DNA of 63,263 bases, filler included, from Stramenopiles sp. TOSAG23-6 (taxonomy: Eukaryota): NCBI GenBank assembly GCA_900128565.1. It is 5 parts of 5 records of this genome, joined end to end, with 100 filler letters (N's around TTAATTAATTAA, not from the genome) between each part and the next. Parts side by side here need not be neighbours in the genome. Positions count along the whole stretch, not along the records: positions 12,723 to 25,332 come from LT636198.1; positions 25,433 to 38,027 come from LT636199.1; 3 more parts are not named here. One strand, 5' to 3'. The notes under the pieces are model-generated. The model ran no database searches and was not told where the DNA came from. It saw nothing but the letters and a program-made list of their open reading frames with translations. The stretch's first letter is position 1, and the number at the start of each line of letters is the position of its first letter. This document shows positions 12,623 through 50,762 of this stretch, one piece after another. The position numbers and the translations under genes are program-made.

Positions 12623-12722
12623 NNNNNNNNNNNNNNNNNNNNNNNNNNNNNNNNNNNNNNNNNNNNTTAATTAATTAANNNNNNNNNNNNNNNNNNNNNN
12701 NNNNNNNNNNNNNNNNNNNNNN
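12623..12722. other. Artificial contig linker
   Basis: N44-TTAATTAATTAA-N44. Confidence 0.98.
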
Positions 12723-13800: not shown

Positions 13801-14331
13801 TCTATAGCCCATAGTATTAGACACAAAAGTAGTGTCCCAGAGCATGATATAGAACATATAGGTAGTACCACAGTTCATGAAATTGAAGATGNGNGTACTT
13901 CGATTGTGCCGCATCTCGATTATGCAAGTGCTTCAGTTGTGCANAATATTGGACACACCGGTCGTGTCAAAGTTCGCGACGTTANGCATNATGGTATCAC
14001 TGCGATGTATGAACCACATAGCCCATCTCATTTTTATGCAGAAGGTAAAAATAAAGTTAAGGATGTAAAGGATGCAGTGACTGTTGATAGTATGAATAAT
14101 ATACTGGATCAGTTACTCAATGAATATTCTCAGTGGGGGCTTAGAGAAGAAAGTACGAGTCCTAAAAAGAATGATGTTACTAGCCACAATATTTTAATCA
14201 ATAATTTAGGATACAAGGGAATGCAAAATAATTTAAATTCTCTACAACGAAAGAAAGGAATGAAAATAGAAAATCGNAAAAAGAAATATGTAAGTAAACA
14301 GAGTAAAACCCCAGTGCGATGGAGACACTAA
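12724..14331 (+). CDS. His/Gly-rich tandem-repeat protein, 5' partial
   Basis: Frame open from the gap: IEHAGSSTAHGIGRVAHGIGHAGSVAIHG... continuing into ORF 13906-14331. Confidence 0.75.
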   Translation: MEHAGSSTAHGIGRVAHGIGHAGSVAIHGIEHAGSSTAHGIGRVAHGIEHAGSSTAHGIGRVAHGIGHVGSATLHGIEHAGSSTAHGIGRVAHGIGHAGSVAIHGIEHAGSSTAHGIGRVAHGIEHAGSSTAHGIGRVAHGIGHVGSATLHGIEHAGSSTAHGIGRVAHGVGHAGSVAIHGIEHAGSSTAHGIGRVAHGIGHAGSATVHGIEHAGRATLHGIEHVGSSTAHGIGRVAHGIEHGIEHAGKATVHGIEHAGRATLHGIEHAGSSTAHGIGRVAHGIGHGIEHTGKATVHGIEHAGRATVHGIEHAGSSTAHGIGRVAHGIEHGIGHTGKATVHEIEHAGRATIHGIEHAGESIAHSIRHKSSVPEHDIEHIGSTTVHEIEDXXTSIVPHLDYASASVVXNIGHTGRVKVRDVXHXGITAMYEPHSPSHFYAEGKNKVKDVKDAVTVDSMNNILDQLLNEYSQWGLREESTSPKKNDVTSHNILINNLGYKGMQNNLNSLQRKKGMKIENXKKKYVSKQSKTPVRWRH

Positions 14332-19727: not shown

Positions 19728-21761
19728 TCAATAAGTATTTAGGTGTTTTTCAATATGCATTCTTCTCCTATGACGAGCTTTCCGTAATACTTCCCGCATC
19801 TCAGATAAATGATTATCTATTTTGATCTTGTCAACATTTCGATATTCTTCGTGTATTCGAGAATAATCTATCTTGTGATGATGTAACCCAGTAACATTAA
19901 CAGGATTGACACCTCCGTCTTTTACAACATCTTCTCTAAACGATGTTTTCCCGGAAACATTACTGATTTTAGTGGGGCGATCACTATTGTTTGATCCTCT
20001 TCCTTTCGCTCTTAGAGACCTCATTCTTGGTGTTGCAAACCTATTACGATTACTGACTCCAAGGACATTACCATGATATGTGTGGATTTTCCTGTCAAAC
20101 CGAAATCTGCTTGATTTAGACTTTAAATAATTTACTTCTTTTTTATCACTATTTGTATCATCATTTAAAATGTTGGCTCGCTTAAGACCCAAGAGAGTAT
20201 TTGCCAGGGCTATATTGGTATTTGCATAACTATTTGTATCGTTTGCATTACTATTTTCATTATTATTGTCATCATTAACATTGTCATTATTATTATTATC
20301 ATCGTTATTATTATCATTGCTATTATTATCATTATCATTATCATTATTTTTGACATTAGAATTACCATCATTTTTATTAGCATAACTATTTGTATCGTTT
20401 GTATTACTCTTTTCATTATTATTGTCATCATTGATATTATCATTGTTATTATTATCATTGTTATTATTATCATTATTATTGACGTTAGAATTATCAACAT
20501 TATTATTAGCATCATCATTTGAAACGTAAATATTTGTCTTAGTCAAGTTTGATTTCATTTTGAACGGTTGAGATTTGTAATCAAGTGTCAAATCTTCCTG
20601 ATGGTCCCATAAAATATCTCCATCTAATTCAATTTCTGAGTCAAAATCCACAATATTTTCTTGATCTAATTGCGAACTCTCTCCGACAAACATTGCAAAT
20701 TGTTTTCTTGCCAAGTTTAGTGCGTCTTTCTTTTCTTCTTCATTTTGAAGGGGTTTATCTGTAGTATCAGTAGTATCTGTAGTATCTGTAGTATCTGTAT
20801 TATCTGTATTATCTGTATTATTTATTTGTAAACATTTACCTGACATTGGCTCTGATATTGATGATATTTTTTGTTCGTTAATTTTTTTACTGCGGCTCTT
20901 TCTTCTTAACTCACTTAATTGAAGCCCTAGTTTATGTTTTTGTATGGCATAAGGCGACGGTCTCGGAGGCGGACACGGTGCCAACTTTGCAGTCGACTTT
21001 TGAATGTGTTGTGATGTTTGTGGTGGCGGAGGGGTGATTGGTGGAGATATTTCACTAAAATCTTCTTTTATTGTACCATTGTTTTTTTTCTGATGTTCCT
21101 GTAAATTATTGATTTCTTCCATTTCGCTGCCAGAATTTGATATTGTTTGAATTGTTCGGCTTTTAGATGTAAACGNTGAATTTTGTATTGGTTTATTCTC
21201 TGTTTTAATTCTGCGTAGAGAGACACTATTGATTAAACTATTCATCGTCTGTTGNGTCTTTTCTTCAGGAGTNTGNACTTTGGTTCTTACATCTATTTGT
21301 TTAAAATCTACGGTGCTATCGTTTGATGTACCCGCCTTTAACATCAAATAGTCCTCCCATTGCTCTACACTATACTCTGCAATACCTTTTGCAGTATTAT
21401 AACACCTAGCCGCGTGATATTGCAGTTCATTCTTTGGTAGAGGGAGCTTTCGTAGACGAAGTCTTTCAGCGAACTTTTTCCGACGAAAGTTCTCTTCACC
21501 AGCTCCCTTTGAAAGCCATTTTGGTGTTTCACTTTTATCAAAATCTTCGTCTTCATCTTTTTTTGTGGTACTATTTAGCTTTGCATTTATAGTAATAGTA
21601 TGGACATTAACTAAATGATGGCTATCCTCCTCGCCAGCACCAGATATTGCTGACATTGTTACTGTATGAGGGGCCACACTTATACGGTTACCTGATACGC
21701 TCCGCTTTTTCTTCAACTTTGGTCGACCCCAGAACTTCTCACCAAATATTGTGAGTGACAT
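19728..21761 (-). CDS. Hypothetical low-complexity (Asn/Asp-rich) protein
   Basis: Long ORF with NNND repeats and TDT repeats. Confidence 0.7.
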   Translation of the reverse strand: MSLTIFGEKFWGRPKLKKKRSVSGNRISVAPHTVTMSAISGAGEEDSHHLVNVHTITINAKLNSTTKKDEDEDFDKSETPKWLSKGAGEENFRRKKFAERLRLRKLPLPKNELQYHAARCYNTAKGIAEYSVEQWEDYLMLKAGTSNDSTVDFKQIDVRTKXXTPEEKXQQTMNSLINSVSLRRIKTENKPIQNSXFTSKSRTIQTISNSGSEMEEINNLQEHQKKNNGTIKEDFSEISPPITPPPPQTSQHIQKSTAKLAPCPPPRPSPYAIQKHKLGLQLSELRRKSRSKKINEQKISSISEPMSGKCLQINNTDNTDNTDTTDTTDTTDTTDKPLQNEEEKKDALNLARKQFAMFVGESSQLDQENIVDFDSEIELDGDILWDHQEDLTLDYKSQPFKMKSNLTKTNIYVSNDDANNNVDNSNVNNNDNNNNDNNNNDNINDDNNNEKSNTNDTNSYANKNDGNSNVKNNDNDNDNNSNDNNNDDNNNNDNVNDDNNNENSNANDTNSYANTNIALANTLLGLKRANILNDDTNSDKKEVNYLKSKSSRFRFDRKIHTYHGNVLGVSNRNRFATPRMRSLRAKGRGSNNSDRPTKISNVSGKTSFREDVVKDGGVNPVNVTGLHHHKIDYSRIHEEYRNVDKIKIDNHLSEMREVLRKARHRRRMHIEKHLNTY

Positions 21762-22046
21762 TTTCAAATATCTATTATAACATTGCTACTGTATTATATT
21801 CTCTAATTACAAGCTATGAAAGATACGCGCTGATCAGATCGAATAAATTGCGATTTCGGACGTTAATTTTCGTAACTGTTACATTCTCTCTCGCTTTTGT
21901 ACTACCTTCAGTAGTTGTATACAAGCTATAGCTTTAACAAAATAACAACTTTATCGTACAATAAAAATTAAATTGAGGAGCCGAATTTTTAAAGCTGATG
22001 TTACATCTAATTTGCTGTGCACGTTGAAGCTTAGTTTATATCGAGA

Positions 22047-23392
22047 ATGTCAATTCCGAAAAATAATGCAAGTACTTTGGATAGAATGCTCACTGGTGGC
22101 AAATATGTATCAAAACCTATAGACGTGCTAGATATGCGAAACATTGCACCAATCACATCTAAGCAGGCAGTCGAGATGGCACTGGATCTTAAATTTCAAC
22201 TAGATCATCGATTATCTTTCAAGTCAATTCCATTAAAATCAAAATATAGGGATTGCGCCGCCGCTTACGAAGAGATATCTAGAATGTACCAAATAGCGCA
22301 TGAGTGGGAAGCGGCAGCTGATGCTATGGCACTCGTCGCAAAATTCCATGTTTCACTAGAAAAAACTTTAGAAGCCGCGACATATTTTGAAGAAACTGCT
22401 CAGTTCTACAAACGTGCTAAACTTGAGCCAGAATATGTTGAGCACCAAGAAAAAGCCATTTTGCTATATGTTGAAGGTGGAAATCTCAGTGACGCAGCAG
22501 CTTTAGAGGAAGTTCTTGCTGAGCTTTCTAATTCTGCCATGGAAACTCAAGAAGCACTAGAGCATTATGATCGTGCAGCCTTATATCTACGCGAAGATGG
22601 TGAACTTATAAAGGGTGCTCATATAAGTGTATGATTTCATTTTAATTTCGGATTTTTTTTTTTTTTTCATAGAAAATTTTGTACTTATATGTTTTTTTTT
22701 GAAATATTTCTCAGAATACATGCATATGTGGCTGAACTTTCAGGACAAGCAGAAGAATATGAAAGATCTCGAAATGAGTTTGTTCGTGTGGCAAATGTAA
22801 TGTTGATGCATAACTTAACCCAGTTCAATTCTCGTGAATACTTGTTAAATGCATGTATTTGTCAATTACTTTTGAGCGAGGAAATAGAAGTGGATAGCTA
22901 TGTATGTGACTCTCTCATACATTTCAAAGTTCTGTTTATACTAAATTTTGTGCTTAAAAAATTTTTCACTAAAACAAAATATTTTTCACAATACATAAAC
23001 TGAAAAAACACTGCACAGAATTTATTAAAGAGTGTTGCACTATAGATTGTATGTTTGGTTCTACAAGAGAATGTAAGTTTATGTATGATTTGCTTGAAGC
23101 GTATTTAGTTCCATCAATGGATGATTTTGCAGATCATGTCTACAATTTTGATTCTGTGGTACAACTCAATTATTGGCGGCTGACAATGTTAAACAGAATA
23201 AAAAAAAGTATCGCATTTGAGTTAGATATTGAATTAACTGATGATAGTGATATAAGCGACTACTCCTCCGAAGATGAATCTGAATATGAGTCAGATGAGG
23301 ATGACAGTGAATACACAGAAGCTGAAGATGATGATGGTTATGGCGAGGATATTGTCAGTGATAATGATGAAATTTCAGTGACGTCAAAATAA
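22047..23392 (+). CDS. Alpha-SNAP-like (NSF attachment protein) TPR protein; exons 22047-22628, 22722-22901, 22997-23392
   Basis: Helical SNAP-like repeats. Splicing restores ID.MFGSTRECKF; acidic C-terminal tail. Confidence 0.75.
22629..22721 (+). mobile_element. Introner-family intron, GT-AT, 93 nt
   Basis: AGT|GTATGA...CAGAATACAT|GCA. The nearby CAG would give a frameshift and stop. Confidence 0.8.
22902..22996 (+). mobile_element. Introner-family intron (diverged), GT-AT, 95 nt
   Basis: TAT|GTATGT...ATATTTTTCACAATACAT|AAA. Restores the frame. Confidence 0.8.
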
Positions 23393-24851: not shown

Positions 24852-25274
24852 TTACAAATTCAATGAATTAAAATGTCCGATTTCTGCTCCCTTTACACCA
24901 ATGTTATCCACTTTGTACAATCCTCCAGCTCCAGGATGAGAGACACTTAATTCATCGCCATCCGTCCAGTATTCTCTAGCTGTGGTGATATACAGATCAT
25001 GTATTTTGGAAAAATATTTCAAAAAAAAAAAATAATTTTTGTTAGGTACAAAATTTCGTACGAAAAATTCAATTTCAAATTTAAAAAAAAAATAAAACAT
25101 ACATTTAGAGACGGTCCCCCGAATGCAAGTAATGTGAAAAATATTTTTTTTTTAGTCAAAAACAATTCATTAGGTACAAAATTTTCATAGTAAAAAAAAA
25201 ATTGAAATGAAAAAGAAGAACGTACAACGGCGGTGGTTTGAGGCCCAGCTTCGACAGGCAATTCAACAACACTT
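24852..25274 (-). CDS. SMP-30/gluconolactonase family, 3' part; exons 25274-25226, 25126-25103, 24998-24852
   Basis: Spliced product VVELP..QTTAVAFGGPSLNDLYITTA..AGGLY. Confidence 0.88.
24999..25102 (-). mobile_element. Introner-family intron, GT-AT, 104 nt
   Basis: AAT|GTATGT...CAAAATACAT|GAT. Confidence 0.88.
25127..25225 (-). mobile_element. Introner-family intron, GT-TT, 99 nt
   Basis: GTT|GTACGT...CACATTACTT|GCA. TT is duplicated at both ends. Confidence 0.85.
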
Positions 25275-25332
25275 AAGTATTTTGGAAAAATATTTGAAAA
25301 AAAAAACGTTAGGTACAAAATTTCGTACGAAA
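25275..25332 (-). mobile_element. Introner-family intron, partial, ends in TT
   Basis: TTTCGTACGAAATTTTGTACCTAAC...CAAAATACTT|AAGT. The contig breaks inside it. Confidence 0.8.
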
Positions 25333-25432
25333 NNNNNNNNNNNNNNNNNNNNNNNNNNNNNNNNNNNNNNNNNNNNTTAATTAATTAANNNNNNNNNNNN
25401 NNNNNNNNNNNNNNNNNNNNNNNNNNNNNNNN
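25333..25432. other. Artificial contig linker
   Basis: N44-TTAATTAATTAA-N44. Confidence 0.98.
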
Positions 25433-25434
25433 CA

Positions 25435-26446
25435 GGTTTGCCTCATTATGGACATATTCTTGCTGGAACTATTAAAGATACTGTGACTCGGTACGCTCAC
25501 CAGACAGGTCACCATGTCAGTCGTCGTTTCGGTTGGGATTGCCACGGTTTACCTGTTGAACACGAGATTGACAAAAAGCTCGGTATTACTGGTCGTGACG
25601 ATGTCTTGAAAATGGGAATTGATAAGTACAATGCGGAATGTCGCTCTATTGTTTCCAGATACACTTCACAATGGGAACAAGTTATTACGCGCTTGGGTCG
25701 TTGGATTGACTTCAAAAATGACTATAAAACATTAGAGCCATGGTTCATGGAGTCTGTTTGGTGGGTCTTTAAACAACTGTGGGAGAAAGGTCTTGTATAC
25801 CACAATCCTACTCTTACATATGTCCGTATTAAAGATATCAAAACAAACTCTATATGGATTTTAGGTAAAGATCGTTTGGTCCAAGTCTATCCTAAAATGT
25901 TGGATAAAAAAGGAAATCCGTCTAAAAAATTCAACGTGAAAGAACATTTCGAAATTATCAAAGAATACGTTGGTAAAGACTTAGAAGGTATTCGATATAA
26001 ACCATTATTTGATTATTACATATCACGTGCAGAAGCACCTCGAAATAATTTTCGTATTCTTGTCGATGATTACGTAACAAGTGAAAATGGTACTGGTGTT
26101 GTTCACCAAGCTCCAGCATTTGGTGAAGATGATTACCGTGTTTGTCAACAATTTGGAATTATTGATAAGATGGTGTTTGAAGACCTCCCCTGCCCAGTTG
26201 ATGCAAATGGACGTAGTGAAAGAAGCTGATAAACACATTTGTAAAGCACTGAAAGAAAAAAAACGCATGCTTATTCATTCATCGTTTACACATTCATATC
26301 CTTTCTGTTGGAGATCAGATACTCCTTTAATCTATAAAGCAGTGCCTTCTTGGTTTATTCACGTGTCTAATCCTGAAATCAAAGAAAAACTGTTGAGGAA
26401 TAATGACGTCACTTACTGGGTTCCTGAACGTGTGAAGACAAAGTAA
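25435..26446 (+). pseudogene. IARS1: Isoleucyl-tRNA synthetase fragment with internal deletions, frameshift and truncation (pseudogene or misassembly)
   Basis: PHYGH (HIGH motif), FGWDCHGLPVE, GTGVVHQAPAFGEDD, HSYPFCWRSDTPLIY. Lacks the WTTTPWT segment and the KMSKS half. Confidence 0.75.
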
Positions 26447-26534
26447 AAATTCTCAAACAAATTCTGATATTAAAAAAAAAAAAAATATTTTAAATGGACC
26501 TATTTTAAATTCTCATACAAATTGTTTCAGCAAT

Positions 26535-27271
26535 ATGGAAACAACACCAATTGAATTAGACAATAGCAAAGGTTGGCAGATTGTTGGTAAGAAAGTTGTA
26601 TCAGACCAATGTGTCACGAAATCAAAAAATAAAATCAAAAAAATGAATACAAGCAAAACAGTAAAAAAAACTACAGAAAAAAAAACAAAGATAAAACATG
26701 ATTTCACAAAAATGAATGAAAATTCCCACCAACAAAAGCAAACAACAAAAAAGAGTTTTTCTTCCTGTGTAAAGGACATTCCAGTGAATATAAAAATTGT
26801 AAATGGCCGATCAAATTGTAAAACAGAAATCCAAAAAATCAAAAAAATCAAAAAAATCAAAAATATCGAAAATATCGAAAATATCGAAAATATTCAAAAA
26901 TCAGGAGTAAATAATTTTAGTGTAGGGAAAAATATGACAACTTCAGCTTCCTTATTATCATATCTACAAGAGGAAATAGACAATCGCTCTGTCGCCATTG
27001 CTGCTGCAAAATTAACACCAGCAAATGTTTGTGGTGTTGGTTTAGAACAGTTGAGTGTAACACAAATGGATATGTTTGTTTTATTTTTTTTCAATTTCGA
27101 ATTTATTTTTCGTACGAAATTTTGTAGTTAGAATGGCTGCATATTGATTCCTTGAAACGTGTTAGTGCTCGCCGTATTAAAGCGGCTAAATTATTAGAAA
27201 GAATGAAAATTGAAGAAGCGATGTCAATTCGTCAAAATATAGCAAACTTACAAGGAAGTCGTAGTATTTAA
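26535..27271 (+). CDS. Hypothetical Lys-rich protein; exons 26535-~27073, ~27127-27271
   Basis: LEQLSVTQMDM continues as LEWLHIDSLKRV across a truncated family intron. Confidence 0.55.
27074..27126 (+). mobile_element. Truncated introner copy (3' half missing)
   Basis: AT|GTTTGT...TTTCGTACGAAATTTTGTA, then exon sequence resumes. Confidence 0.65.
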
Positions 27272-27331
27272 ATATATTTTAATCTTTTCAAAATAATATA
27301 TGTTATTTATTGTCATTTGATAAAAAATAAT

Positions 27332-29980
27332 TCATTCATAATCAACTTCGATACTATCATCATCATCGTCAGCTTCAGCATGACTCATGTCACTTTTTAC
27401 TATTACAGCAGGATTTTCGTTTTCCTCTTTAATTTCTGTGACGTTTGGTTTTGCATCTTTTGGTTTTGAATCATCATTATTACTGTCCGATACAACATTC
27501 GAATTACAATTTGATTCATCATTGTTATTTTTTACACTTTTTGTTTTTTTCCATTCAAGTAAAATGTTTTGACCACGAAACAAATTACCGAATTTCATTG
27601 CTTTTTCAGCTTCCCAACGATTTATATATTTCACATGAGCGACTCTGTCTTTAATCTCAACTTGAACCGTACCAAACGCACCAAAATGTTCTGCAATAAG
27701 TTCTTTACTAACATCAGTGTCAAAATTTGTCCATGTCATTTCCGTAGGTCGAAGATCCAAAGATTTGTATGACTTATAATTTCTCCCTCTTCCTCGACCT
27801 CCTCTTCCTCGGCCTCGGCCTCCTCTTCCCCTACCAGATAGTTCCCTTTTGGATGCCAGGGTTGAAGAAGCTACTGCATTTAATTCTTTAAGTGTTTCCA
27901 TTGAAACTTGGATTTCTTTCATTAAAGCTAATATTTCTTTTTTTGGAGCTTTTTTTGATGACATTTCAAAAAGAAGATTTTTTTGATCTTTTAATTTCTT
28001 TTGAATTTCAGATCTTTTTTTTGTCTGATCAGTATGAAGAGCGAGCTCTTTTTGTGCTCTGATAATATGTTTTGGTATTATTTTACTTTTTTGAGACTTT
28101 TCAGGTTGAAAGTCATCAGTTTGTGATTTGCTATTTTGGTTCATAATTCTAGCATTTCGTTTTTTATCTTTTTCTTGTTGTTCTTTCACTGCATATGTTG
28201 TGAATAAATATTAGCACAGTTTTAAAATTTGTTAAGTACAAAAAAAAGAAATTTGAATAATACATTTGAAATGAATGATGATGCAAATGTACATCTACAA
28301 ACATTAAAAAAAAACGGGTTTGTTTAGGTACAAAATTTCGTATGAAAAAAAACATACATGTTGTTTATCCATAGTATCTTGAACTTCAGCATTTGGTGCT
28401 TCGTCTAAATCACCAAGTTCTGTTTTAGCCCACGAAACCTATAGTATATAGCATATGCAAAATTGTATTTAAATGAATAAAAAAATGTCAACACAAAATG
28501 AAATATAATTGAACAATAGAAATATAATTGAACATAATTGAACAATAGAAATATAATTGAACAATAGAAATATAGAAATATAGAGCATCAGAGTTAGTAC
28601 ATTTTTCATAATGTTTCTTTTTTTTAAGATCACATTTGCTCAAATGACACGCACTATAGTTAAATCAGGGCTCTATTCATCAAAAGACAAATTCATAAAA
28701 ACAAATACAAATTCATAAAAACAAATTCATAAAAACAAATACAAAAAAATACAAAAAAATACAAAAAAATATTTGATGCTATAAACAAAACATACAGTAA
28801 TGAATCGATTATTGCATACCGATTGAGGTGACTTGAAGGCTCTTTCTGCCCCAGCACGAGACTCAAATTGAATGTATGCACACTTCGATTTTGGTTTCAT
28901 TTGGACATTAATGACATTACCAAATTTACCAAAATGAGCACATATTTTACCCATATTTACATACTTTGGGTCTACTTTTCTACATAGCAAAGTTGTTATA
29001 GTGTTTGAATTGGTTGAATATTGTTGATTATGAGATTTAGGATATGAGTCATTTCCAGTTCCATCACTTTCACGTCGCAAATTATTTCTATTATAATGCG
29101 TACTAGGGTTAGGGCTGTTAGAGTTCAAATCTCCACGTTTTGCAAAATTAGGTTTACGAAGGTCTTTTTCTCCATGAGCCCAGTTACAGCGATTCTCGAA
29201 TTTACAAGATCCTGTTCTTCTGTAATTATCACATAATTTTGTTTTGTAAAAAACTTCACCAGAAGGAGAAAGAGGAGTGTGTCGTCTGAAATCAACAGAT
29301 TGAGGAGAACTTCTGAATTCTCTGTTCGACTCTCTAAAACCACTAGAGTTAGGGTTAGGGTTCTCTCTATAACCACTAGAGTTAGGGTTAGGGTTCTCTC
29401 TATAACCACTAGAGTTTTGAGAATATCTGTTTGGTACATTTCTACCATCATTTTTGGGACATTGCTGCCAACCATTATCATTTCTATCATTCGTACGACG
29501 TCGTTTTGAGTCATGATATTGAATATCACTACCAGAAGGACGAGATTTGTTTCCCCAATCCACACGTCGTTTGTCCATCCTAGACCTCCTATGATATTCA
29601 TCACTCATTTCATTGTCATTTCTCCGCGTGCGCCGATAATGATGTTCATCCTCGTCATCACTAATATGTCTACTTCCCTGGCGTACTGGATGTCTCGTAT
29701 CCTGTACACGCGACGACGTTCCACCATTGACTCCATCAAAAAAAGCTCGAGTGTCCATCACATTGAATAGTAAGTCAACAAAAGATTCCACGTCTTTGTT
29801 TTCCATAAATGGTTTCATATTTACAACACAATGTTGCTTATGCTCAACAATCGGTAAATCCTTTTGTAAAAGTTTCAAAGTATATTCAGAAAGTACTTGA
29901 GTGTTTTCCACACCGATTACGTTTAATTGATACACCAACCACTTCAGCAATGGGTCTTCCCAATTCTTTTCGACCTTCAT
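27332..29980 (-). CDS. RBM26: RBM26/27-like RNA-binding protein (PWI, CCCH, 2 RRM); exons 29980-28796, 28438-28358, 28192-27332
   Basis: PWI-like N-terminus, YKTKLC..C..C.WAHG, RRM ending NNRFIT|VSW, RGG stretch and a second RRM. Confidence 0.85.
28193..28357 (-). mobile_element. Composite (double) introner intron, GT-AT, 165 nt
   Basis: CAT|GTATGT...two GTACYTAA cores...CACAACATAT|GCA. Confidence 0.65.
28439..28795 (-). other. Canonical GT-AG intron, 357 nt, containing simple repeats
   Basis: ACT|GTATGT...CTATAG|GTT. Restores NNRFITVSW. Confidence 0.85.
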
Positions 29981-30395
29981 TGAATAATCTTGGTATTACA
30001 CTATAACAAAATATGTAATCCTCTGCAAATAATCTCTGCCGCTAAAGATTGGACAATGAATCCACTTTCCTTTTTTCTAGTAAGAAGACAACGCGCACTC
30101 GAAAATACCCGAGTATTTTAATAAATGTGGAGAGGACGACGACTACTGGTGCACTACTGGTAGTAGACTGGTCACACGATCAAACCTGAGCTGACTGACA
30201 ATATATACACTACACGAAATCGGGAGCTTTCTAGGTACTACTTATCATCCATTCAGCTCTAAAACGATGCACGAATGTCTCACTAATCTTGCTTCAACTG
30301 AAATTACTAACAATTTGCTTCCATTTGTAAATTTGTTAATTGGTATGAAATTTTCAATGAAAAAAAAAATCTATAAAAAAAAAAAATGAAAAGTT

Positions 30396-32811
30396 TCAAC
30401 TATCATTTAATTTAATTCCTAGTCTATCTTTAGGCAAAAAAAGTATTGTAATGACACCTCCAAGTATATACATCATAGCAAATGTACTCATGGCTAAATC
30501 AGGATTATTCTTCATTAAATAACCGCCAATAGGAGGACCCAAAGCACCCAATAATCTTGAAGAACTGACTCCCAAGCCAGCAGCGGCAGCACGAATACTT
30601 GTAGGATACGCTTCGGCAGTAAAGACCATCATTGGAATCCACACCCATGTATTGTGAAAAAAAAAAATTATAAAAATTTGTTAGGTACAAAACTTCGTCC
30701 GAAAAAAAATTTAGAAATTCAAAGAATAAAACAATAAAAAAAAATGAAACATACATGTCCCAAATCCTTGGACGCTTCCTAATGAGATACAAATCTGTGG
30801 GAAATTATATCCAATGATAACACCAAATGTTGCAATTCCTGCACCAAAAAAGCCAATATAAACAAATATTTTTCTTCCCAATTTATCTATTCCAACAGCA
30901 CGTATTGTAAAAATATATTTCTTTTTTTTTTTGAAAAGATCGTTAGGTACAAAATTTCATATGAAAAAAGAATAAAAACTCCAATTCTGAAAACGTACAC
31001 ACGAAAGTGTAAATATTATATCTGCAATTTGACCTGATGCGCAAATGTAAGCTATATCTAATTGATTCAGTCCCTTCTGCTTTTCTAAATAAGTAGGCCC
31101 AAATGCTCTAACACCTACTGTCGGAAATCCCACTAAGCAAGTTATCAAAACAATTATTACTGTAATATATACATAGGGAGGTCGGTATGGAGTGTGAAAA
31201 AATATTCCTTTTCTTTTTAAATCGTTAGATACAAAATTTCGTATGAAAAAAAAAAGGTAAAAAATTCAATTTTGAAAACGTACACAATTGCACAGGAAAT
31301 GCTTTTCTCAGCCAATCAGTATTTTTACAAAACCAACGCATTTTCTTTGGTTGATGTTGGTGGCGGTGTTGGTGTTGGCGTTGATGGTGTTGGTGGTGGT
31401 GTTGATGGTGTTTGTGTTGATGGTGTTGATGGTGTTGGTGGTGCTGGTGGTGTTGGTGCAGGTGACTCGATTCTATTTCATGACTTTCGGTTGTATCATC
31501 ACTACTACTATTAATTGGTCCATTTTCTTGATTGTTTTTCTTTCTATGTCGTCTTCGCCTGAGAAGACTTGATTGTTCATTTGCTTGACTAGTAGATGTA
31601 TCTTGAACAAATATAATTCTTTTTAGTAAAAAAAATATGTTAGGTATGGAATTAGGTACAAAAAAAATTGAAATTTTGAAAAAAAATGTTAGGTATGGAA
31701 TTAGGTACAAAAAAAAATTGAAATTTTGAAAACGTACACATTTTATCTAGTGGTATTAAGTGTAGTTGACGAAGATCTTCCATTTCTTCAGGTGTTACAG
31801 GATTTCCATTCATTTTACGAATTGAAATAAGCGTTTTTATTGCTCTCTTTGTTTCTCCGGCGAATATTAAATAACGTGGAGATTCGGGTAAAAAGAACAT
31901 CATGTATTTTGGAAAAATATTTCAAAAAAAAAACACTAAAATTTGTTAGGTACAAAATTTCGTACGAAAAACTTTCGAATTTGAAAAAAAGTAAAACATA
32001 CATACAGACACATAAACTAAACGATGGAATTGAAGTGACTAAGACACAAACTCTCCAATTAGGCAACATATAATAACTAACCATGTTGGCTAAAAGTCCA
32101 CCAACTGGCCAACCTAAACGTGTCAAAACCATAATAGCTCCACGTGATTGAATAGGGAAAAATTCAGCAGACATGCTTAATCGAACAGGGCGTTGTAACC
32201 CAAAAGAAACTCCAACGATAAAACGTAAAATCATCAGCTCAAGCCAATCTCGTGCGAGTGCACACATACCTCCAAAAATAATAATGCCTAGAAAACCAGA
32301 ATATAAAAGTGGCAACCTTCCTATTCGATCACATGTGCTGGAAGACATATTTCAAACATTTGAAATTCGTTAGGTATGAAATTGTAGGATTTTCTATGAA
32401 AAAAAAATTTGAAATTTGTCATGGAAACGTACACACTGGGCCTGCAAGTAAAGAACTAAGTGCAATACCAACACATCCAGCTCCGATAATAAGTCCATTT
32501 GAAAATTCAGTTGTTCCGAGATCTTCTTCGAATCTGGTAAACAGAAAGGAATTTATTTCAAAGAAGAGACCATCGGATAGTGCGACGAGCGTAAAATATA
32601 CAAAGCAAAATACATGAAATATTCCAAATTCCATAGTTTCAAACTTGTCTTGAAAATCTCTCAATCGTTGAGTATTTTTTTCTCTCCCATGGAAAGAAAT
32701 GCTATCTGCTGATGTGTCTAATGAAGTTTCCATATCCTCGTCAGAGCTCTCTTCGGGTACGAAGCAAAAGTCACAGCAACATGAAATTCCCGAAAGCTTC
32801 TCGGCAAACAT
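30396..32811 (-). CDS. MFS transporter (SV2/SVOP-like), 7 exons: 32811-32433, 32332-32002, 31901-31738, 31595-31284, 31186-30999, 30899-30755, 30646-30396
   Basis: CDRIGR, LRFIVG, AEFFP..RG, LPESPRYL, IDKLGRK, TAEAYPT.IRA. All exon phases are consistent. Confidence 0.92.
30647..30754 (-). mobile_element. Introner-family intron, GT-AT, 108 nt
   Basis: ACAT|GTATGT...CACAATACAT|GG. Confidence 0.85.
30900..30998 (-). mobile_element. Introner-family intron, GT-GT, 99 nt
   Basis: TGT|GTACGT...TACAATACGT|GCT. GT is duplicated at both ends. Confidence 0.85.
31187..31283 (-). mobile_element. Introner-family intron, GT-AT, 97 nt
   Basis: TTGT|GTACGT...CACACTCCAT|AC, giving QLYRPPY. Confidence 0.75.
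31596..31737 (-). mobile_element. Introner-family intron with internal tandem duplication, GT-AT, 142 nt
   Basis: ATGT|GTACGT...(GTACCTAATTCCATACCTAAC)x2...CAAGATACAT|CT. Confidence 0.8.
31902..32001 (-). mobile_element. Introner-family intron, GT-AT, 100 nt
   Basis: AT|GTATGT...CAAAATACAT|G, giving MMFFLPESP. Confidence 0.88.
32333..32432 (-). mobile_element. Introner-family intron (diverged), GT-AT, 100 nt
   Basis: GTGT|GTACGT...CCAGCACAT|GT, giving GPVCDRIGR. Confidence 0.82.
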
Positions 32812-33124: not shown

Positions 33125-34377
33125 TTATTTTTTTAGTTTCATTTTTTCTTCGTTACAGCGTATAATAAAAGATAAAATATCAGCAGTAAATGCATCAAAT
33201 ACAAGTATGTTGAAAGATCTGTGAGAATGTTCAACAATATATTTCCCAATCTTTTGGTTTAATTCCTTCCGCTTTGTCAAAGCAACAATTCCTGGGGTTT
33301 TACCAAAACCCAAAGAAAAAATATTACGAATTTCTTCTGTCGTAATAATTTTACCATGCATTTGGAAATGTGCTGCTTGAAGACATATCTTATCATATGA
33401 TGGGTCTCTACTTATAGATTCTTCTTCAATACATTTTTTCAGTATTGTGAAAAAATATTTCAATAATTTGAAATTTGTTAGGTACGAAATTCCGTATGAA
33501 AAAAAAATGAATTTCAATAATTTGAAATTTGTTAGCCATAGAAATCTAGTATGAAAAAAAAAAGTCAAAATGGACAACGTACAACTTGTTCCCAACTACT
33601 TTGTTCTCTATTTCCATCGTAACGGCAATCAAAAACGTCTCTTACATGTATTTTGGAAAAATATTTCAAATTGTTTTTCGTTAGGTACAAAATTTCGTAC
33701 GAAAAAAAAAACTTCGAAATTGAAAAAAAATGAAAACGTACATGTATAAAACTGTAGTTCCCTAAATATTGATTTGAAACTAATCCAAGTTGCCACTTGT
33801 TCTGAATACATGTTTTAATATTTATGTTTGCTAAATTTTCTGAATTTGGAATAGCAATATCTGAAAATATTCGTATAGCATTCATAAAAGTTCTGGAGTC
33901 TAATTCAACTTCAATATCATCTTTTCGTGCAATACCAAATTCATCAAATTTAATTATGATAATTTCTAATGGATTTTCATGTAAGAAAGTCCGAATAACA
34001 TCAAATGCATCATATATTGTTGGATATGTGAACCAAACAACACCGTGATGAAATGTTGGTATTTGGTCTACAAGAGGTCGAAAGTCAAGATATCTTACTC
34101 CAGATTCTAAAAGTTCTTTCAATGAAAGCGACTGTGTAATTGACCAATTTAAGTATTTTCGTTGTAACCATCTTTGTTTTACTTCTTTTGTAAAACTATC
34201 ATGGACATTTTTTATATCCCATTCACCACTGATGCTATGATGAGTTCCTGGTAATACAATATCTTTCAGTTTTCTAGAGGTCCAAAGGGAACCAAATGTA
34301 TTGACCATTTCTTCCATCCATCTCTTTCCATTGTATGCACCTTTAGACTTTGGGATAGAATCATGATTTTTAGACAT
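33125..34377 (-). CDS. PI-PLC X-domain protein (PLCXD-like); exons 34377-33742, 33645-33583, 33439-33125
   Basis: LPGTHHS, WSITQ, GVRYLDFR, FLHENPLEIIII, C-terminal FNILVFD. Confidence 0.88.
33440..33582 (-). mobile_element. Introner-family intron with internal duplication, GT-TG, 143 nt
   Basis: GTT|GTACGT...CACAATACTG|AAA. Confidence 0.78.
33646..33741 (-). mobile_element. Introner-family intron, GT-AT, 96 nt (3n, stop-free)
   Basis: CAT|GTACGT...CAAAATACAT|GTA. Confidence 0.85.
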
Positions 34378-35610: not shown

Positions 35611-37974
35611 TCAGTTTCCTAAATTTCTTTTCTTTTTCAATGAATTATTAGATGAATTTTCATCAATTTTGCGTTTTCTACTTTCAGAAAAATCATGTTG
35701 AATCAATTTTTTGGCAACGCTAAACGGAATATCTAAACCTACATGACAACGAGTGATACCTTGCTCAAAAGAGGAGCAACGTAAAACTTTAATGCCTTTA
35801 TTAACATCATGAAATGTTTGCCGATACGCTTCTTGAATAGTTGCCCATATTTCTATAATATTACCACACAAAAGTGAATGTGTCTCCATTCGATTTTTAT
35901 ATTTGCTAGTACAAGGTCTGGTACCTGTTTAGTGAAAAAATATAATATACATTTAAAATACATTAGGTATGTATAAAAACGACTTTTAAAATTGTAATGA
36001 AATGATGAAAATNTACATGGTATCGTTCTACAGGTTATACATTGACCGCAGTTATCTTGAGTGGTGACGTCATCATCATTAAGTGAGACACGTCCCGCTT
36101 GGGAATGTTGATCCATCCAAAGTTGGCGAATATTTTCAATTTCATGGAATGATGAATTACGGTGATCTTTTGCTTTACAAGATTTTGTTGAAAGTTGAGT
36201 TTGAATATTTTTCAAAGTTGGCCGGTCAGTAAACTCTGTCTTTGGAAGGTTAGTATTGGAGATTTGTTGTACAATCTTCTTGAAAATATTTGGAGCCATA
36301 TTCTTACTACGTTTGTGTGGATAATACACTGTAAATTGCGTATGTTGAGGAAATCTTGACCTTTTAGATAACTTGCGCTCAAGTTCTTGTGAAGACATTT
36401 GTTCTAGCCCCTGAGGTAAAACTTCCATAAATAGCATGCACTCACGACGCCGAGAGCCTTGTCGGGGAACCCAACTGTAAAAACCATCATGAGAACCAAA
36501 AAACTTGTACGAATGGGATGCTCGACGTAAAACATTTCGACCACTCCAACCATCAATTTGTACATTATTATTTACATCATCACCAATGATATTCATTCTT
36601 TTTTGTTTCAATCGAGTCATACGAACAATACGATCTTTTAACAAGTTTTCAGCGGATTCAAAAGATCGGCCAAAATCAATGGAACATTCAACAACTTCAG
36701 CACAAACACCTTCATCGTTTGTTTGAATTATTTTAGGTAATTCGCATTTATTAAGAAAAAATATTTGGAAAAAAAAATCGTTAGGTACGGAATTTTCTAT
36801 AAAACAAAATATTTTGACATTCAATTCTGAAAACATGCATAATTTAACACTCGTTGCGCCAAGTTGGACTGCTGATTGAACACCTGGATTCCAAGTATCT
36901 AACATTTTTGCTTCATCCACTTTTTGTTTGTAGCAAGCAAGAAATGCATCAAATATATAATTTTGCCAAGCATAAGGGTAATTTAAAACACGATTAGCAA
37001 AACCTTTGAAAGTGTCCCATTTTCGTAAACCTCCACCACCATAGCTAAGTTTTCCTATAATACAAAGTATGAATGAATTAAGCTTTTCTATTTTTAAATA
37101 ATCAATATCCTCATCATCCTCATCCTCATCACCTGATATACTCAAATCAATATCGTCTTGACTAAAATCAGGTCGATTGTATTCTAATATTTTTTGTACT
37201 CCAGACGCAAGATCCTCAGCTAAATTAAGAAATTCATCACTTATACTTACATCCCACATATTTTTAATTGTACCATCAGCAACACATGGTAACATCAATT
37301 CACCTGAAAATTCTTCTTTATCATTCTTATTTTGTAATTCTTGAGCAACAGTACCAAAATTTTCTTCACATTGAAATTTTCTACTATTTTTACTTATAGC
37401 TCCTCGTAAATCATTCAGAGCTTGAATACCATACTCATTTTGCCAGTTCATTTCTTCAAATAAACTACGACCTTTCTTATGCTCGCCACCAGCAAAAGAA
37501 GCAGAACGATCGCCACGTGTCAATGCTCCTAAAGATTCAAGTCGTGATGTAACTGCAGAAACAAAACGTTTCTCGCCACCTAATTCAGTAACAAAAACTT
37601 TATACATAGGCGGAATGCGTTGATTTGTTCGATGTACTCGTCCCATCATTTGTAATGCAGCATCAGCAGCCCATGGAAGTTCAAGTACAATGTTTACATG
37701 TAATTTTTGGAAAATAATTTTTTTTTTGTACAATTTGAAAGATTGTTAGGTACGAAATTTCGTACGAAAAAACAATGTAGAAAAAAAATTGAAAAAAAAA
37801 ACGTACACGACGACGTTGGCCAGCTATAGGATTATTGCGTTCACAATGCATTGAAATACCAGTTGCAGCAGCACTTGATATTATTGCGACGAATTTCTCA
37901 CCTCTTTGAAATGCTTCTTTTTCTTCTGCATTACTTAAATAGCGATCTTCTAATCTTAATTCATTCGTCACAGC
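35611..37974 (-). CDS. SBNO: Strawberry notch-like helicase, 3' part; exons 37974-37807, 37697-36839, 36745-36017, 35924-35611
   Basis: AIISSAAATGISMH, QRRRV..LELPWAAD..LQMMGRVHRTNQ, GGEKRFVSAV..RLESLGALTRGDR. Confidence 0.92.
35925..36016 (-). mobile_element. Diverged family intron with canonical GT-AG ends, 92 nt
   Basis: CCAT|GTANAT...TACCTAAT...ATATTTTTTCACTAAACAG|GT. Confidence 0.75.
36746..36838 (-). mobile_element. Introner-family intron, GC-AT, 93 nt (3n)
   Basis: TTAT|GCATGT...CCGTACCTAAC...CTTAATAAAT|GC. Confidence 0.72.
37698..37806 (-). mobile_element. Introner-family intron, GT-AT, 109 nt
   Basis: CGT|GTACGT...AAAATTACAT|GTA. Restores QRRRV. Confidence 0.9.
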
Positions 37975-38027
37975 ATGTATTTTGGAAAAATATTTCAAAA
38001 AAAAAAAACTTAAATTTGTTAGGTACA
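37975..38027 (-). mobile_element. Introner-family intron, partial
   Basis: TGTACCTAAC...CAAAATACAT|GCT. The contig breaks inside it. Confidence 0.8.
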
Positions 38028-38127
38028 NNNNNNNNNNNNNNNNNNNNNNNNNNNNNNNNNNNNNNNNNNNNTTAATTAATTAANNNNNNNNNNNNNNNNN
38101 NNNNNNNNNNNNNNNNNNNNNNNNNNN
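38028..38127. other. Artificial contig linker
   Basis: N44-TTAATTAATTAA-N44. Confidence 0.98.
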
Positions 38128-38304: not shown

Positions 38305-39232
38305 TTATACTAAGGGAATCGTTAATGATCCAACTGCACCCCCATCGACAGGAATTATAGCACCCGTAATCCAACTTGAAGATGCAGAACTCAGAAAAAT
38401 AGCAGCACCAGCTATATCTTTTTTCCCTCCAAAACGTTTTAATGGAATACCTTCTTTAATTTCTTCAGTTGTTGCATATTTTTCTAAGCCTTGACTCATC
38501 TTTGAAGGGATATATCCAGGCGCTATTGCGTTAACTGTAATAAAATGGCTTGAAAGCTCTGAAGATAAACTTTTTGTTAGGTGGTGAACACCCGCTTTAG
38601 ATACATCATGTATTTTGGAAAAATATTTCAAAAAAACATTTAATTTTTGTTAGGTACAAAATTTCGTACGAAAAAAAAATCAAAATTGAAAAAAAAATAA
38701 AACATACATAGGCAAAGGTTGGTGTGGACTGTGGTAGTATTCCAGCAATTGAGCCGATATTAATCACTCTTGCTGGATCATCCTGTGTTGCAACATTGTC
38801 AAGAAGCGGTAAAAGACTTCTTGTAAGATAATAAATTGATTTTACATTCAAATCAAGAACCTTATCAAAACCTGCTGTGCTATTGATATTTGAGTGATCA
38901 AATTCTTCACCCCAGGATGTTCCTGAATTGTTGACTAGCACGTCTAACTCTTTTAAACCATATTTATGTTCAAGATCATCTGCTAATCTATTGCAACCAT
39001 CCAAACTTGATATATCTGATCCAAATCCAAATGCTTTACCATGACCTGGTTGTGATTCCGAAAGATCAGAAGCTACATCTGCACAATCTGAACCATTTCG
39101 CGATGTAAGATAAACAGTTGCACCATTTTCAACAAAACTGGAAGCAATCATTTTTCCAATTCCTCGTGCTCCACCAGTAACAAGAACGGTCTTGCCAGCA
39201 ACACTAAATAGACTTTGAAGAGACGATGTCAT
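38305..39232 (-). CDS. Short-chain dehydrogenase/reductase (RhlG-like); exons 39232-38708, 38607-38305
   Basis: TGGARGIG, LVNNSG, catalytic Y|DVSK split by the intron, ITG..IPVDGG. Confidence 0.93.
38608..38707 (-). mobile_element. Introner-family intron, GT-AT, 100 nt
   Basis: TAT|GTATGT...TTCGTACGAAATTTTGTACCTAAC...CAAAATACAT|GAT. Confidence 0.92.
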
Positions 39233-39457: not shown

Positions 39458-40872
39458 ATGGCCATATTTGTTTTAGCACTAACATTCCTATTGTGTAGAT
39501 ATAGTTTGGTATCATCTAATATGGTATCGAAAGACATCATGGATAACTCTACAAAAGCTTTAACTTTGTACAATCCTGGAGCCGTTCTAAAAAAGTTGTA
39601 TTCACCTGTTGTTGACTTTAATTTTGCTGAAATATCTGGAAGTTTCATTGTGAAAATTAAACAGAATATGAAGGGAAAAGGAACGGGTTCAGCTTCTTGG
39701 GATGGTGGGTCCGCAATGGCACACTTAATTCAGAATCCTGATATACTTTTACTTCCACCAAATAGAGGAGGAATTGACTGGTTTCCGTTAGGGTTAGAGT
39801 TAGATGAAACAAACAAAACGGACATTTCACTAAAACAGCCTTTACCTGTAAAACAAGATTGGAATTGGTTAGGAAAACGTGTTGTTGAATTGGGTTCCGG
39901 TCTTGGATTAGTAGGTTTAGTTGCAACTATGCTTGGTGCGGAGGTTTTATGTACCGATGGAGACGAAGAGACTTTAGAAATTGCCGAGAAAAATATAAAA
40001 GATAATATCTCACGCTTTAAAGCGCAAAACGTAGATAATAACGTAGATAATATTGGACAAGCTCATGTTTCTGCATATGCATGGGGATCTGAACCAAATG
40101 CAATGTTAGAAAGAGCATTTGGTTTTGCATATAATTCAGAAAAAATGGAAAAGCTAGGAAACCCTGACCCTAACAAAAATAATATTTATCCTGATGTTGT
40201 AATCGCAGCTGATGTGATTTATGGTGGAAATTCTGAAGCTTGGCACTTATTCATTGAGTCTCTTGCGGCTTTATCAGGTCCAAATACGGTTGTTTTGTTT
40301 GAAATTACAGAGAGATATGCCCGGGAGAAGTATTTATTTATGAAGAATCTTGGTCGACCCGGTAGAAATCATAACGGTTGTACGTTTTCATCATGAATTT
40401 TCAATTTTTTTTTTCATACGAAATTTTGTACCTAAGATTTTTTGTTTTGAGTTTTTTTTCGATACGTTTTTCATCATGAATTTTTTACCTACATTTATTT
40501 CATACGAAATTTTTACCTAACGAAACATTTAAAAAAATGAAATATTTCTTCATATGCATGGCACTCGAGGCGAATTTCTAATGACCTACTACACCCTGAA
40601 TTCCAAAACTCACGTGTGAGTATGTATGTTTTAATTTTTTTTAAATTTCGAATTTATTTTTTTTATAGGAAATTTTGTACCTAACAATTTTTTTATGATT
40701 TTTTTGAAATATTTTTCCAAAATACATATATCAACTGACAAAAAAAAATGGAAGTGTGATGAACGATGAAAATACTAATGGGGAATGTTATGTTGGACGT
40801 TTGCACAAAAAAATCACAAAAGAACAACAACGGATAAAAAAACAAGCTTACGAAAGAACTCTTCAATCCTGA
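39458..40872 (+). CDS. METTL21-like (family 16) protein-lysine methyltransferase; exons 39458-40379, 40560-40623, 40728-40872
   Basis: GTG...WDGG, VVELGSGLGLVG, DVVIAADVIY, and spliced LLHPEF...SIYQL. Confidence 0.85.
40380..40559 (+). mobile_element. Tandem double introner intron, GT-AT, 180 nt
   Basis: GGTT|GTACGT...(TACGTTTTCATCATGAATTTT...CATACGAAATTTT..ACCTAA)x2...ATATGCAT|GG. Confidence 0.75.
40624..40727 (+). mobile_element. Introner-family intron, GT-AT, 104 nt
   Basis: AT|GTATGT...CAAAATACAT|A. Confidence 0.85.
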
Positions 40873-41094: not shown

Positions 41095-42451
41095 ATGGGA
41101 ATGTCGTTACCGGACTTTTGCAAATTAATTGAATCTCAACTTATACCTCGTGAATCTCTAGAAAAATATGAAGTCTTGATAAATCGGCTGCGTAGTATTA
41201 AAAATGAATACTTATCTCATTATTTATTATTAGTTCCAGGTATTAATATAAGTAAAGCTGTAAAGATAATTTGTGATTATTACCCGGTAGACTTTTGCTG
41301 GTCGCCTTGCTTAGAACCTAATTTTATGGCACTGCTGATGCTACACGGCTTTATATGCATAGCAAGTGAGGTTAGGATACCTCCTATATCATCTGGTGTC
41401 GCAAAAAAGGTGAGAGGCAAGAAGAAAAAGAAAAAGAAAAAGGCAAAAGAACATGTTGTGTTGATGCCAAAGTTGCACCTAAAACGCTCTTTATTATGTA
41501 GTTGGAAAGATTTACACGTTTCGAAGTCAGTAAGAAAACGCAGTAAACATTTTTCTCTCACGTTTAATTCGTCATTTGACCTTGTTGTTACGGGATGTCA
41601 AAAGCAACATGGTAAGGCGTGGCTTTATCCACCAGTAGTCAGTGCATTGCGGTACTTATTTGATCAGACACATGCAAATATAGACATAATTAATGATGAA
41701 ATGGTAAATGAAGTCAAAACTGAAATGGTTGGTGAGTTGAAAACTGAAATGGTTGATGAATTGAACAACTTGCAAGAAAGTATTAGTGCCTTACATACTT
41801 CTGAAGGAAAAAATATTGCACCAAATGAGCCATCAAATGATGCTACTAATAAAATTGGTCTCCATTCAGTCGAGTTGTGGTACAATCCAATATCTACAGA
41901 TAATTCTGGTAATAACTCATTAGAAACGCCCAGATTAGTTGCTGGCGAAATGTACGTTTTATTTTTTTTCAATTTCAAACTTAATTTTTTTTCGTACGAA
42001 ATTTTGTACCTAACAAATTTTGACTACATTTTTTTTTCCACAATACATTGGTTGTGTTGTTGGTAATGTTTATACAAGTTTAACAGGATTTTCTGATAGA
42101 ACTGTTTCAGCTGCTGGGACGGTACAGTTAGTTGCATTAGGGCGAGCTTTAGAATGTATGGGCTTCAAGCTATGGGATTTAGGGATGCATGTATGTTTCC
42201 ATTAGGAATTTCAATTTTCTTTTAATACGAAATTTTGTACCTAACGATTTTTTGACCGAAAAAAAATATTTTTCACAATACATATGTCTTATAAGGAGCG
42301 ACTTGGTGCTAAAGAAGTGAATAGGTCAGATTTTTTATCAAAAAGAAGTCTAGATTTAGTACCAAAGCCAATGTTACTTTCCATGGGTAGTAAATCTTGT
42401 AGTGTTGGACAAGGGATCAATGCTCGGGATATTATAGACAAGAAATTATAA
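41095..42451 (+). CDS. Leucyl/phenylalanyl-tRNA-protein transferase-like; exons 41095-41951, 42049-42190, 42284-42451
   Basis: LMPKLH..R, QHG..WLY, HSVELW, LVAGEIG..VG.VYTSLTGF, AGTVQL, WDLGMHMSYK.RLGA. Confidence 0.88.
41952..42048 (+). mobile_element. Introner-family intron, GT-AT, 97 nt
   Basis: GAAAT|GTACGT...CACAATACAT|TGGT. Restores AGEIG. Confidence 0.9.
42191..42283 (+). mobile_element. Introner-family intron, GT-AT, 93 nt
   Basis: CAT|GTATGT...CACAATACAT|ATG. Confidence 0.9.
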
Positions 42452-50608: not shown

Positions 50609-50662
50609 ATGTATTTTGTAAAAATATTTCAAAAAAAAAACTAAAATTTGTTAGGTACAAAA
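50609..50662 (-). mobile_element. Introner-family intron, partial
   Basis: TTTTGTACCTAAC...CAAAATACAT|AGGT. The contig breaks inside it. Confidence 0.8.
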
Positions 50663-50762
50663 NNNNNNNNNNNNNNNNNNNNNNNNNNNNNNNNNNNNNN
50701 NNNNNNTTAATTAATTAANNNNNNNNNNNNNNNNNNNNNNNNNNNNNNNNNNNNNNNNNNNN
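50663..50762. other. Artificial contig linker
   Basis: N44-TTAATTAATTAA-N44. Confidence 0.98.

Follow-up and report, generated by a model that had tools for sequence, protein, structure and literature searches.

We analysed a stretch of 63,263 bases of DNA from Stramenopiles sp. TOSAG23-6 (the window), and found that it carries a family of short, similar introns whose 3' ends appear to be AT, TT, GT or TG rather than AG; the family accounts for 33 of the 34 clear introns in 62 kb. Judged by the handle of a matching EukProt protein, the source organism is treated here as a MAST-3-like marine stramenopile. The reading that we favour, with somewhat better than even confidence, is that the introns are copies of an introner-like element whose insertion duplicates 1–2 bp of the target, the duplicate supplying the non-AG acceptor. 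From the sequence, duplication of one base or more, locus by locus, is likely, with few informative copies; its length may be 1 or 2 bp, and a DNA-level mechanism and a terminal inverted repeat (TIR) are unproven proposals.

A 19-nt core of the family was matched 24 times in the window at up to 3 mismatches, compared to 0.08 matches expected. A hidden Markov model (HMM) built from 18 aligned copies and searched over the window identified 33 loci, of which 28 are complete, one has a truncated 3' part and four are cut by the ends of the pieces that make up the window. The consensus of the 18-copy alignment reads, in order, NT (exon), GTAYGTTTT(A), a T-run, CAATTTCGAA, a second T-run, CGTACGAAATTTTGTACCTAAC, an A/T-rich segment, GAAATATTTTTYCAMAATAC and NN, i.e., a GTAYGT donor, a branch-like ACCTAAC and a T-rich tail with an AATAC end, plus 2 nt. 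The median length is 98 nt (range 89–180 nt), and individual copies are 71–88% identical to the consensus, the closest pair being 91% identical. All 33 loci are genic and lie on the strand of the flanking reading frames, in unrelated host genes (transporters, PRP4, kinesin, a dehydrogenase, SNAP and others). The sole other clear intron, of 357 nt at 28439–28795 (−) in an RBM26-like gene, is canonical (GTATGT...TACTAAC...TAG) and rich in short tandem repeats, and its TAG end indicates that the same genome also uses AG acceptors.

To define what is spliced out, we took the longest open frames on each side of 22 copies and determined how many bases beyond GTA...TAC must be removed to keep the frame. 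In 21 of the 22 copies, this number was 2 (mod 3) directly. The 22nd copy, 25127–25225 (−), lies 24 nt from the next one, and removal of both yields an open frame that reads ...TTAV AFGGPSLN DLYITTAR... across the intervening micro-exon (25103–25126, −); two further copies beyond the 22 fit the same excision. Once the element and its 2 nt are taken out, the coding sequence is co-linear with homologues across four junctions (one in a strawberry-notch-like gene, two in a PRP4-like gene and one in a short-chain dehydrogenase gene). The strawberry-notch-like junction, QRRR/VNIVLELPW, was compared to 116 homologues with the pattern xRRVHITLELPW, and is gapless in the 115 that align across it. Both junctions of the PRP4-like gene are gapless compared to four of five homologues, the fifth (P0242) being too divergent to judge. 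For the dehydrogenase, the end of exon 1 corresponds to residue 182 of chain 2b4q_A and the third residue of exon 2 to residue 185, which places what we take to be the catalytic Tyr and Lys at the usual Y-x-x-x-K spacing. Thus, as shown in silico, splicing is predicted to remove GTA...TAC plus 2 nt, with the frame kept in 22 of 22 copies. This bears out an earlier reading made from the sequence alone (the sequence-only reading), according to which splicing removes the element with one copy of the flanking dinucleotide and leaves the coding sequence unchanged.

Where the two flanking dinucleotides match, the mRNA cannot tell which of them is removed, but one mismatched copy, 37698–37806 (−) in the strawberry-notch-like gene, can be read. 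Here the exon ends in GT, within an invariant Arg codon, and TAC is followed by AT; retention of the exon GT gives QRRRV, whereas retention of AT gives QRRHV, and the aligned homologues have R in 115 of 115 cases and H in none, so that the exon dinucleotide stays and the dinucleotide after TAC is removed. In this one copy, where it is readable, the predicted intron is therefore GT...AT, with the G of GTACGT as its first base and the T of ACAT as its last. The same comparison leads us to reject an AT...AC register, with the intron consisting of NN plus GTA...TAC, which would produce RRHV against the R of all 115 aligned homologues. Acceptors thus defined vary (AT, TT, GT and TG) in genes that look intact. 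A YAG occurs 5 or 7 nt before the intron end in two copies, and its use would break the frame; one of these is the CAG located 5 nt before the frame-keeping end of 32333–32432 (−; GT/AT, written here and below as exon positions −2/−1 vs. the 2 nt after TAC), an intron of an MFS transporter gene. A PDB search with the first exon of that gene yielded no usable match, and the motif spacing of this exon is presumed by us. We also considered a U12-type identity. U12-type introns have the 5' site RTATCCTT and the branch site TCCTTAAC 10–26 nt from the 3' end, and the motifs of the family (5' end GTAYGTTTT, ACCTAAC about 34–48 nt from the 3' end) do not fit. A structured RNA or a known RNA family was rejected as well, with no Rfam match at the gathering score, no tRNA, and unremarkable folds (z from 0.0 to −2.5 in six copies).

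The evidence for duplication comes from the flanks. Among the 28 complete copies, the pairs are AT/AT in 18, GT/AT in 5, TT/TG in 2, and TT/TT, GT/GT and TT/AT in one each, with the same AT/AT majority and the same mismatch types that the sequence-only reading had listed. Its two direct repeats other than AT were likewise recovered, namely TT/TT at 25127–25225 (−), which reads TT, GTACGT...ATTAC, TT, and GT/GT at 30900–30998 (−) in the MFS gene, which reads GT, GTACGT...AATAC, GT. Besides the two copies already described, GT/AT is found at 22629–22721 (+; GTATGA start, alpha-SNAP-like gene), 31187–31283 (−; MFS gene, with exon −2 at a synonymous third codon position) and 31596–31737 (−); TT/TG is found at 33440–33582 (−) and 58817–58909 (+; PRP4-like gene), and TT/AT at 40380–40559 (+). 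We permuted the right-hand dinucleotides among copies and compared the matches. At the first base, exon −2 and the base after TAC agree in 22 of 28 copies, vs. 16.1 on average after shuffling (p = 3.5 × 10−4), and the exact dinucleotide matches in 20 of 28 (p = 0.0028), these p-values treating the copies as independent. In the GTACGT subfamily alone, the first base matches in 8 of 13 copies (p = 0.018). A base other than A follows TAC in four copies, each with the same base at exon −2 (T/T in three, G/G in one), and the base after TAC is unchanged in all 18 copies with an AT exon end; the match signal rests on just these four non-A bases. A further near-consensus copy, 25275–25332 (−), also ends TT (TACTT), its 5' flank being lost in a spacer. 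The flank pattern in the window is beyond chance, the base after TAC co-varying with exon −2 among the window copies.

Under the reading that we favour, a small non-autonomous mobile element would behave as an intron, bringing its own GTAYGT donor, branch-like ACCTAAC and T-rich tail ending in AATAC. Its insertion would occur in DNA, following an NT dinucleotide (AT in roughly two thirds of the copies), and would duplicate 2 bp of the target, or at least the first base, and the downstream duplicate would become the last 2 nt of the intron. Because this duplicate would form the intron end, the acceptor would be set by its position after TAC and not by AG. The exon copy would later drift at silent sites, and the intron copy would probably be pulled towards A at intron −2. 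Only sense copies in genes would survive, because other insertions could not be spliced out.

Several observations weigh against this reading, in addition to the assumption of independent copies made in the shuffle test. The second base hardly varies: T occupies exon −1 in 29 of 29 copies, among them the one cut off by the window start, and it also occupies the second position after TAC in 26 of 28. Duplication and a fixed preference look alike at this position. PMC9860276 cautions against treating an invariant flank as a target-site duplication, and sets out a locus-specific test of the same kind. Of the proposed NT duplication, only the first base is informative, and it co-varies locus by locus; a single duplicated base next to a fixed T accounts for the flanks just as well, and for TT/TG better. 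The acceptor does vary, as expected if the target supplied it, but the intron still ends in AT in 6 of the 10 copies whose exon does not. The two TT/TG copies, at 87% and 83% identity to the consensus, belong to the less diverged ones and carry the same unusual second base, such that a 2-bp duplication requires an identical T-to-G change in each. With regard to the register of these copies, S vs. A at the PRP4 junction is not decisive, given that the four clear homologues show S, I, V and A, and at 33440–33582 both registers encode the same protein.

The features expected of a DNA transposon are also scarce. The inverted ends, GTA(T)/(A)TAC, are 3–4 bp long, too short for a TIR, contrary to the short TIR proposed from sequence alone: positions 1–4 pair in 19, 17, 17 and 11 of 19 copies, respectively, and beyond these only the isolated positions 7 and 21 pair. 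The ends reach 5–6 bp only if the flanking AT is counted, compared to about 10 bp or more for a miniature inverted-repeat transposable element (at least 6 in PMC9860276), and the copies in both orientations and outside genes that characterise such elements are absent from the window. Every 5' family end in the window has a 3' partner within 180 nt. The suggested search for a transposase found no such domain in 49 of the 83 open reading frames (ORFs) of at least 100 aa, the scan leaving out 34 that overlap longer ORFs. Although ORFs of at least 100 aa leave about 14% of the window uncovered, none of the 33 copies is antisense or intergenic, an absence that selection could explain. No empty site was seen in the window either. 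Finally, no copy is young, given the maximum pairwise identity of 91%.

The mismatched copies bear on the proposal that the two dinucleotides, once identical, drifted apart. First-base mismatches are absent from the 11 copies that are at least 83% identical to the consensus, compared to 5 of 12 more diverged copies (p = 0.024). They occur in 4 of 6 copies with exon −2 at a third codon position, vs. 2 of 18 elsewhere (p = 0.018); of the four third-position mismatches, three are synonymous and one is Met/Ile. This pattern fits drift of the exon copy but would be equally expected if AT were merely a preferred landing site. Moreover, drift of the exon cannot explain the mismatch at 37698–37806, where the exon G is the second base of the Arg codon that is invariant in all 115 aligned homologues and the intron ends AT: the exon must already have carried GT at insertion, which argues against a strict duplication.

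The alternative that survives best, although we consider it rather unlikely, involves no target duplication at all. Under this explanation, AT belongs to the element, where it serves as an acceptor or forms the outermost bases of palindromic ends ATGTAY...RTACAT. Sites after xAT or xNT would be favoured for insertion, and the non-AT matches would be due to chance or decay; new copies would arise from duplication-free insertion into DNA, or from reverse splicing of the excised intron into mRNA with subsequent reverse transcription and recombination. The 18 AT/AT copies and the six others that still end AT are readily accounted for in this way, as are the exon GT and intron AT at 37698–37806 and the inverted ends that lengthen to 5–6 bp when AT is included; reverse splicing in particular predicts that all 33 copies are genic and sense, and the caution of PMC9860276 on invariant flanks points the same way. 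What this explanation does not predict is that all four non-A bases match exon −2 while none of the 18 copies with AT exon ends is changed (p = 3.5 × 10−4; p = 0.018 in the subfamily). Two of the four non-A copies are among the less diverged, and the spacer-cut, near-consensus copy 25275–25332 adds a fifth non-A end. The fold of the intron RNA is likewise not unusually stable in the six copies that were folded.

A duplication of a single base appears improbable, but accommodates some of the observations that a 2-bp duplication does not. In this case, the element would begin with the invariant T (T-GTAYGT...TAC), only the base that precedes it would be duplicated, and the base following the single-base duplicate would be ordinary target, usually T. 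The element plus the duplicate still extends 2 nt beyond GTA...TAC and hence fits the frame test, the two TT/TG copies require no mutation, and the T at exon −1 in 29 of 29 copies is readily understood. T-ending codons make up 76% of T/C pairs in this genome, and at equilibrium T would be found in all 15 phase-0 copies with a probability of about 0.016 (0.76^15). CT flanks were not observed among the 29 copies, compared to about 18% of NT dinucleotides in coding sequence. However, single-base target duplications are unusual among known DNA transposons, the GTAYGT donor fits cleavage before G and not before T, so that a T derived from the element would stay in the mRNA, and preference alone would have to account for the downstream T of 26 of 28 targets. 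The residue at the PRP4 junction (S or A) does not discriminate, the homologues having S, I, V or A.

Less probable still is a functional match, in which the splicing machinery needs an intron end that resembles the upstream exon end and the two co-evolve: 24 of 28 introns end in CAT, and the exon reads YAT at −3 to −1 in 10 of the 14 AT/AT copies whose anchors are intact, but six mismatched copies persist in intact-looking genes, with mismatches at silent exon sites as if unconstrained, and no spliceosomal mechanism is known to us that would compare exon −2 with intron −2. A similar rule, with YAY before the 5' site and YAY at the 3' end, is reported for Fritillaria borealis (PMC13326754).

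Three other models of insertion were rejected. A 3-bp duplication (CAT/YAT, or NTG with the donor G) would place C at exon −3, found in 7 of 22 copies, or G after the intron, found in 12 of 22, and neither of the matched copies other than AT fits it. A Tc1/mariner-type TA duplication inside GTA...TAC would need GTAC in the exons, and is excluded by the frame test. Under a Helitron-like, duplication-free insertion between A and T, the last base of the element would not be expected to follow the left flank.

Comparison with known systems suggests that the family is a variant of an introner-type system, in a lineage for which we found no report of it. Introners of Micromonas pusilla and Aureococcus (PMC11282704, PMC9860276) resemble it in that many similar short introns occur in unrelated genes, with one splice site derived from the element and the other located in duplicated target, leaving the mRNA unchanged; formation of the second splice site in the target duplication is described for Micromonas in PMC11282704. 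In contrast, those introners have GY-AG ends, and the earlier characterised families have 3–9 bp flanking repeats (PMC9860276), whereas here the repeat does not exceed 2 bp, AT (also TT, GT and TG) serves as the acceptor and the inverted ends are only 3–4 bp. The closest architecture is that of a family in the haptophyte Chrysochromulina sp. (PMC9860276), which combines a target-site duplication with the lack of a TIR, its own 5' site and a co-opted 3' site; its duplication is 4 bp, the passages cited mention no departure from AG, and its host differs from the heterotrophic stramenopile considered here. Fungal introner-like elements, for which reverse splicing is proposed (PMC9860276), are also genic, sense and devoid of a real TIR, but have no flank duplication, whereas here exon −2 and the base after TAC co-vary.

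Non-AG ends are shared with two other systems. The introns of Fritillaria borealis (PMC13326754, PMC11282704) are transposon-derived and have non-AG acceptors, with 3' AT the commonest; as in the window, a short motif that precedes the 5' site is repeated at the intron end and is read as a target duplication that creates the 3' site. Nevertheless, the main Fritillaria classes are AG/AC and AG/AT with a YAY or TAC triplet, unlike the GTAYGT donor, GT start and 2-nt repeat observed here, which set these introns apart from the Fritillaria type. Because Fritillaria is an animal and the source here is a protist, any likeness would be convergent. In Amoebophrya (PMC7789003), introners are repeated non-canonical introns with direct repeats of 3–5 nt over the exon/intron borders and no internal transposase, much as here, but they carry inverted repeats of 8–20 nt that form hairpins and have highly varied termini, whereas the family in the window shows no significant fold and a constant donor. 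In the literature that we searched (introner with MAST or stramenopile, and MAST-3 genera with intron or splice, best-ranked matches), we found no report of such introns in MAST lineages. The intron passages of PMC5778133 and of a 2026 preprint on protist single-cell genomes do not mention them, and the available portion of the PMC9860276 supplement names stramenopile single-cell assemblies in its list of genomes only.

A broader proposal, which we put forward tentatively as a possibility, is that nearly all introns of this genome come from one mobile element and that the acceptor lies two bases beyond an invariant TAC, any dinucleotide that the target provided (AT, TT, GT or TG) being used, such that the spliceosome measures the 3' site, a trait evolved independently of Fritillaria. 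If true, this would be an independent natural case of an element flooding a compact genome with introns and of a spliceosome accepting non-AG ends made of target bases. Element-driven introns with non-AG ends have so far been argued mainly for a tunicate and a parasitic dinoflagellate, and the case would bear on the origin of new introns and on the flexibility of acceptor recognition. Protein sets of the MAST-3-like lineage may also be systematically wrong wherever introns of this family occur.

Acceptors of this kind, non-AG and set by position, are not reflected in the two public gene models that we compared (EF1-gamma and PRP4-like), nor in the literature searched. The public model P0237 (GSMAST32.ASY1.ANO1.1094.1) of the PRP4-like gene (58150–59866, +) translates into both family introns and skips conserved WD40 residues; since it reads into both introns, the annotation has not recognised them. 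Use of a public gene model as transcript-type support was therefore abandoned, the only comparable model being mis-spliced and yielding no evidence. The EF1-gamma ORF is identical to protein GSMAST32.ASY1.ANO1.2646.1 (a EukProt handle) except for 8 residues skipped by the model, and its next matches are stramenopiles; these 8 residues, dropped by the public model P0001 in the region 6350–6373, are kept by relatives.

The AT/AT copies are distributed over the window as follows. On the minus strand, they are located at 1726–1814, 2208–2302 (GTTTGT start), 24999–25102, 28193–28357 (long and degenerate, ending CATAT), 30647–30754 and 31902–32001 (both in the MFS transporter gene), 33646–33741 (the top HMM score), 36746–36838 (degenerate, ending TAAAT), 38608–38707 (short-chain dehydrogenase, right after the Tyr codon) and 50231–50330. 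On the plus strand, they are located at 22902–22996 (alpha-SNAP-like gene), 40624–40727, 41952–42048, 42191–42283, 46301–46395 (ending CTCAT), 46888–46982 (kinesin gene), 50999–51097 and 59481–59574 (PRP4-like gene). The donor is altered in three of these, which start ATACGT (50231–50330, with A at +1), GGATGT (50999–51097) and GCATGT (36746–36838), and their true 5' sites are uncertain. Three long copies, 31596–31737, 33440–33582 and 40380–40559, contain internal tandem duplications of about 45–50 nt or, in the last case, two partial copies in tandem. A copy with a truncated 3' part, 27074–27132 (+), has its 3' boundary at 27129 or 27132 and is left out of the counts. The micro-exon at 25103–25126 is flanked by two family introns, 24999–25102 and 25127–25225, and the product of its gene, judged by a motif, reads like a putative SMP30/gluconolactonase-type protein.

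The window consists of five pieces of about 12.6 kb each, joined by N44-TTAATTAATTAA-N44 spacers (12623–12722, 25333–25432, 38028–38127 and 50663–50762). Its G+C content is 32–42%, and ORFs of at least 100 aa cover about 86% of its bases. The window start and three of the four joins cut through a family copy: 1–52 (−), of which only the 5' part is present, with GT as the exon flank, and 25275–25332, 37975–38027 and 50609–50662 (all −), of which only the 3' parts are present, the last two ending ACAT. Given these cuts, the intron-family repeat seems to break the assembly. The predicted genes are ordinary eukaryotic ones (eIF2B, a nucleoporin, IQCH, alpha-SNAP, MFS transporters, strawberry notch, a dehydrogenase, a kinesin, PRP4 and others). 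Isoleucyl-tRNA synthetase-like frames at 25433–26443 (+) look truncated, appear to be without part of the conserved core and change frame near 26215; they may represent a pseudogene, or an artefact of assembly or amplification. A long ORF of HGIEHAGSSTAHGIGRVA-like repeats (12724–14328, +) and an Asn/Asp-rich low-complexity ORF (19731–21785, −) are also present, neither with a match to a curated family.

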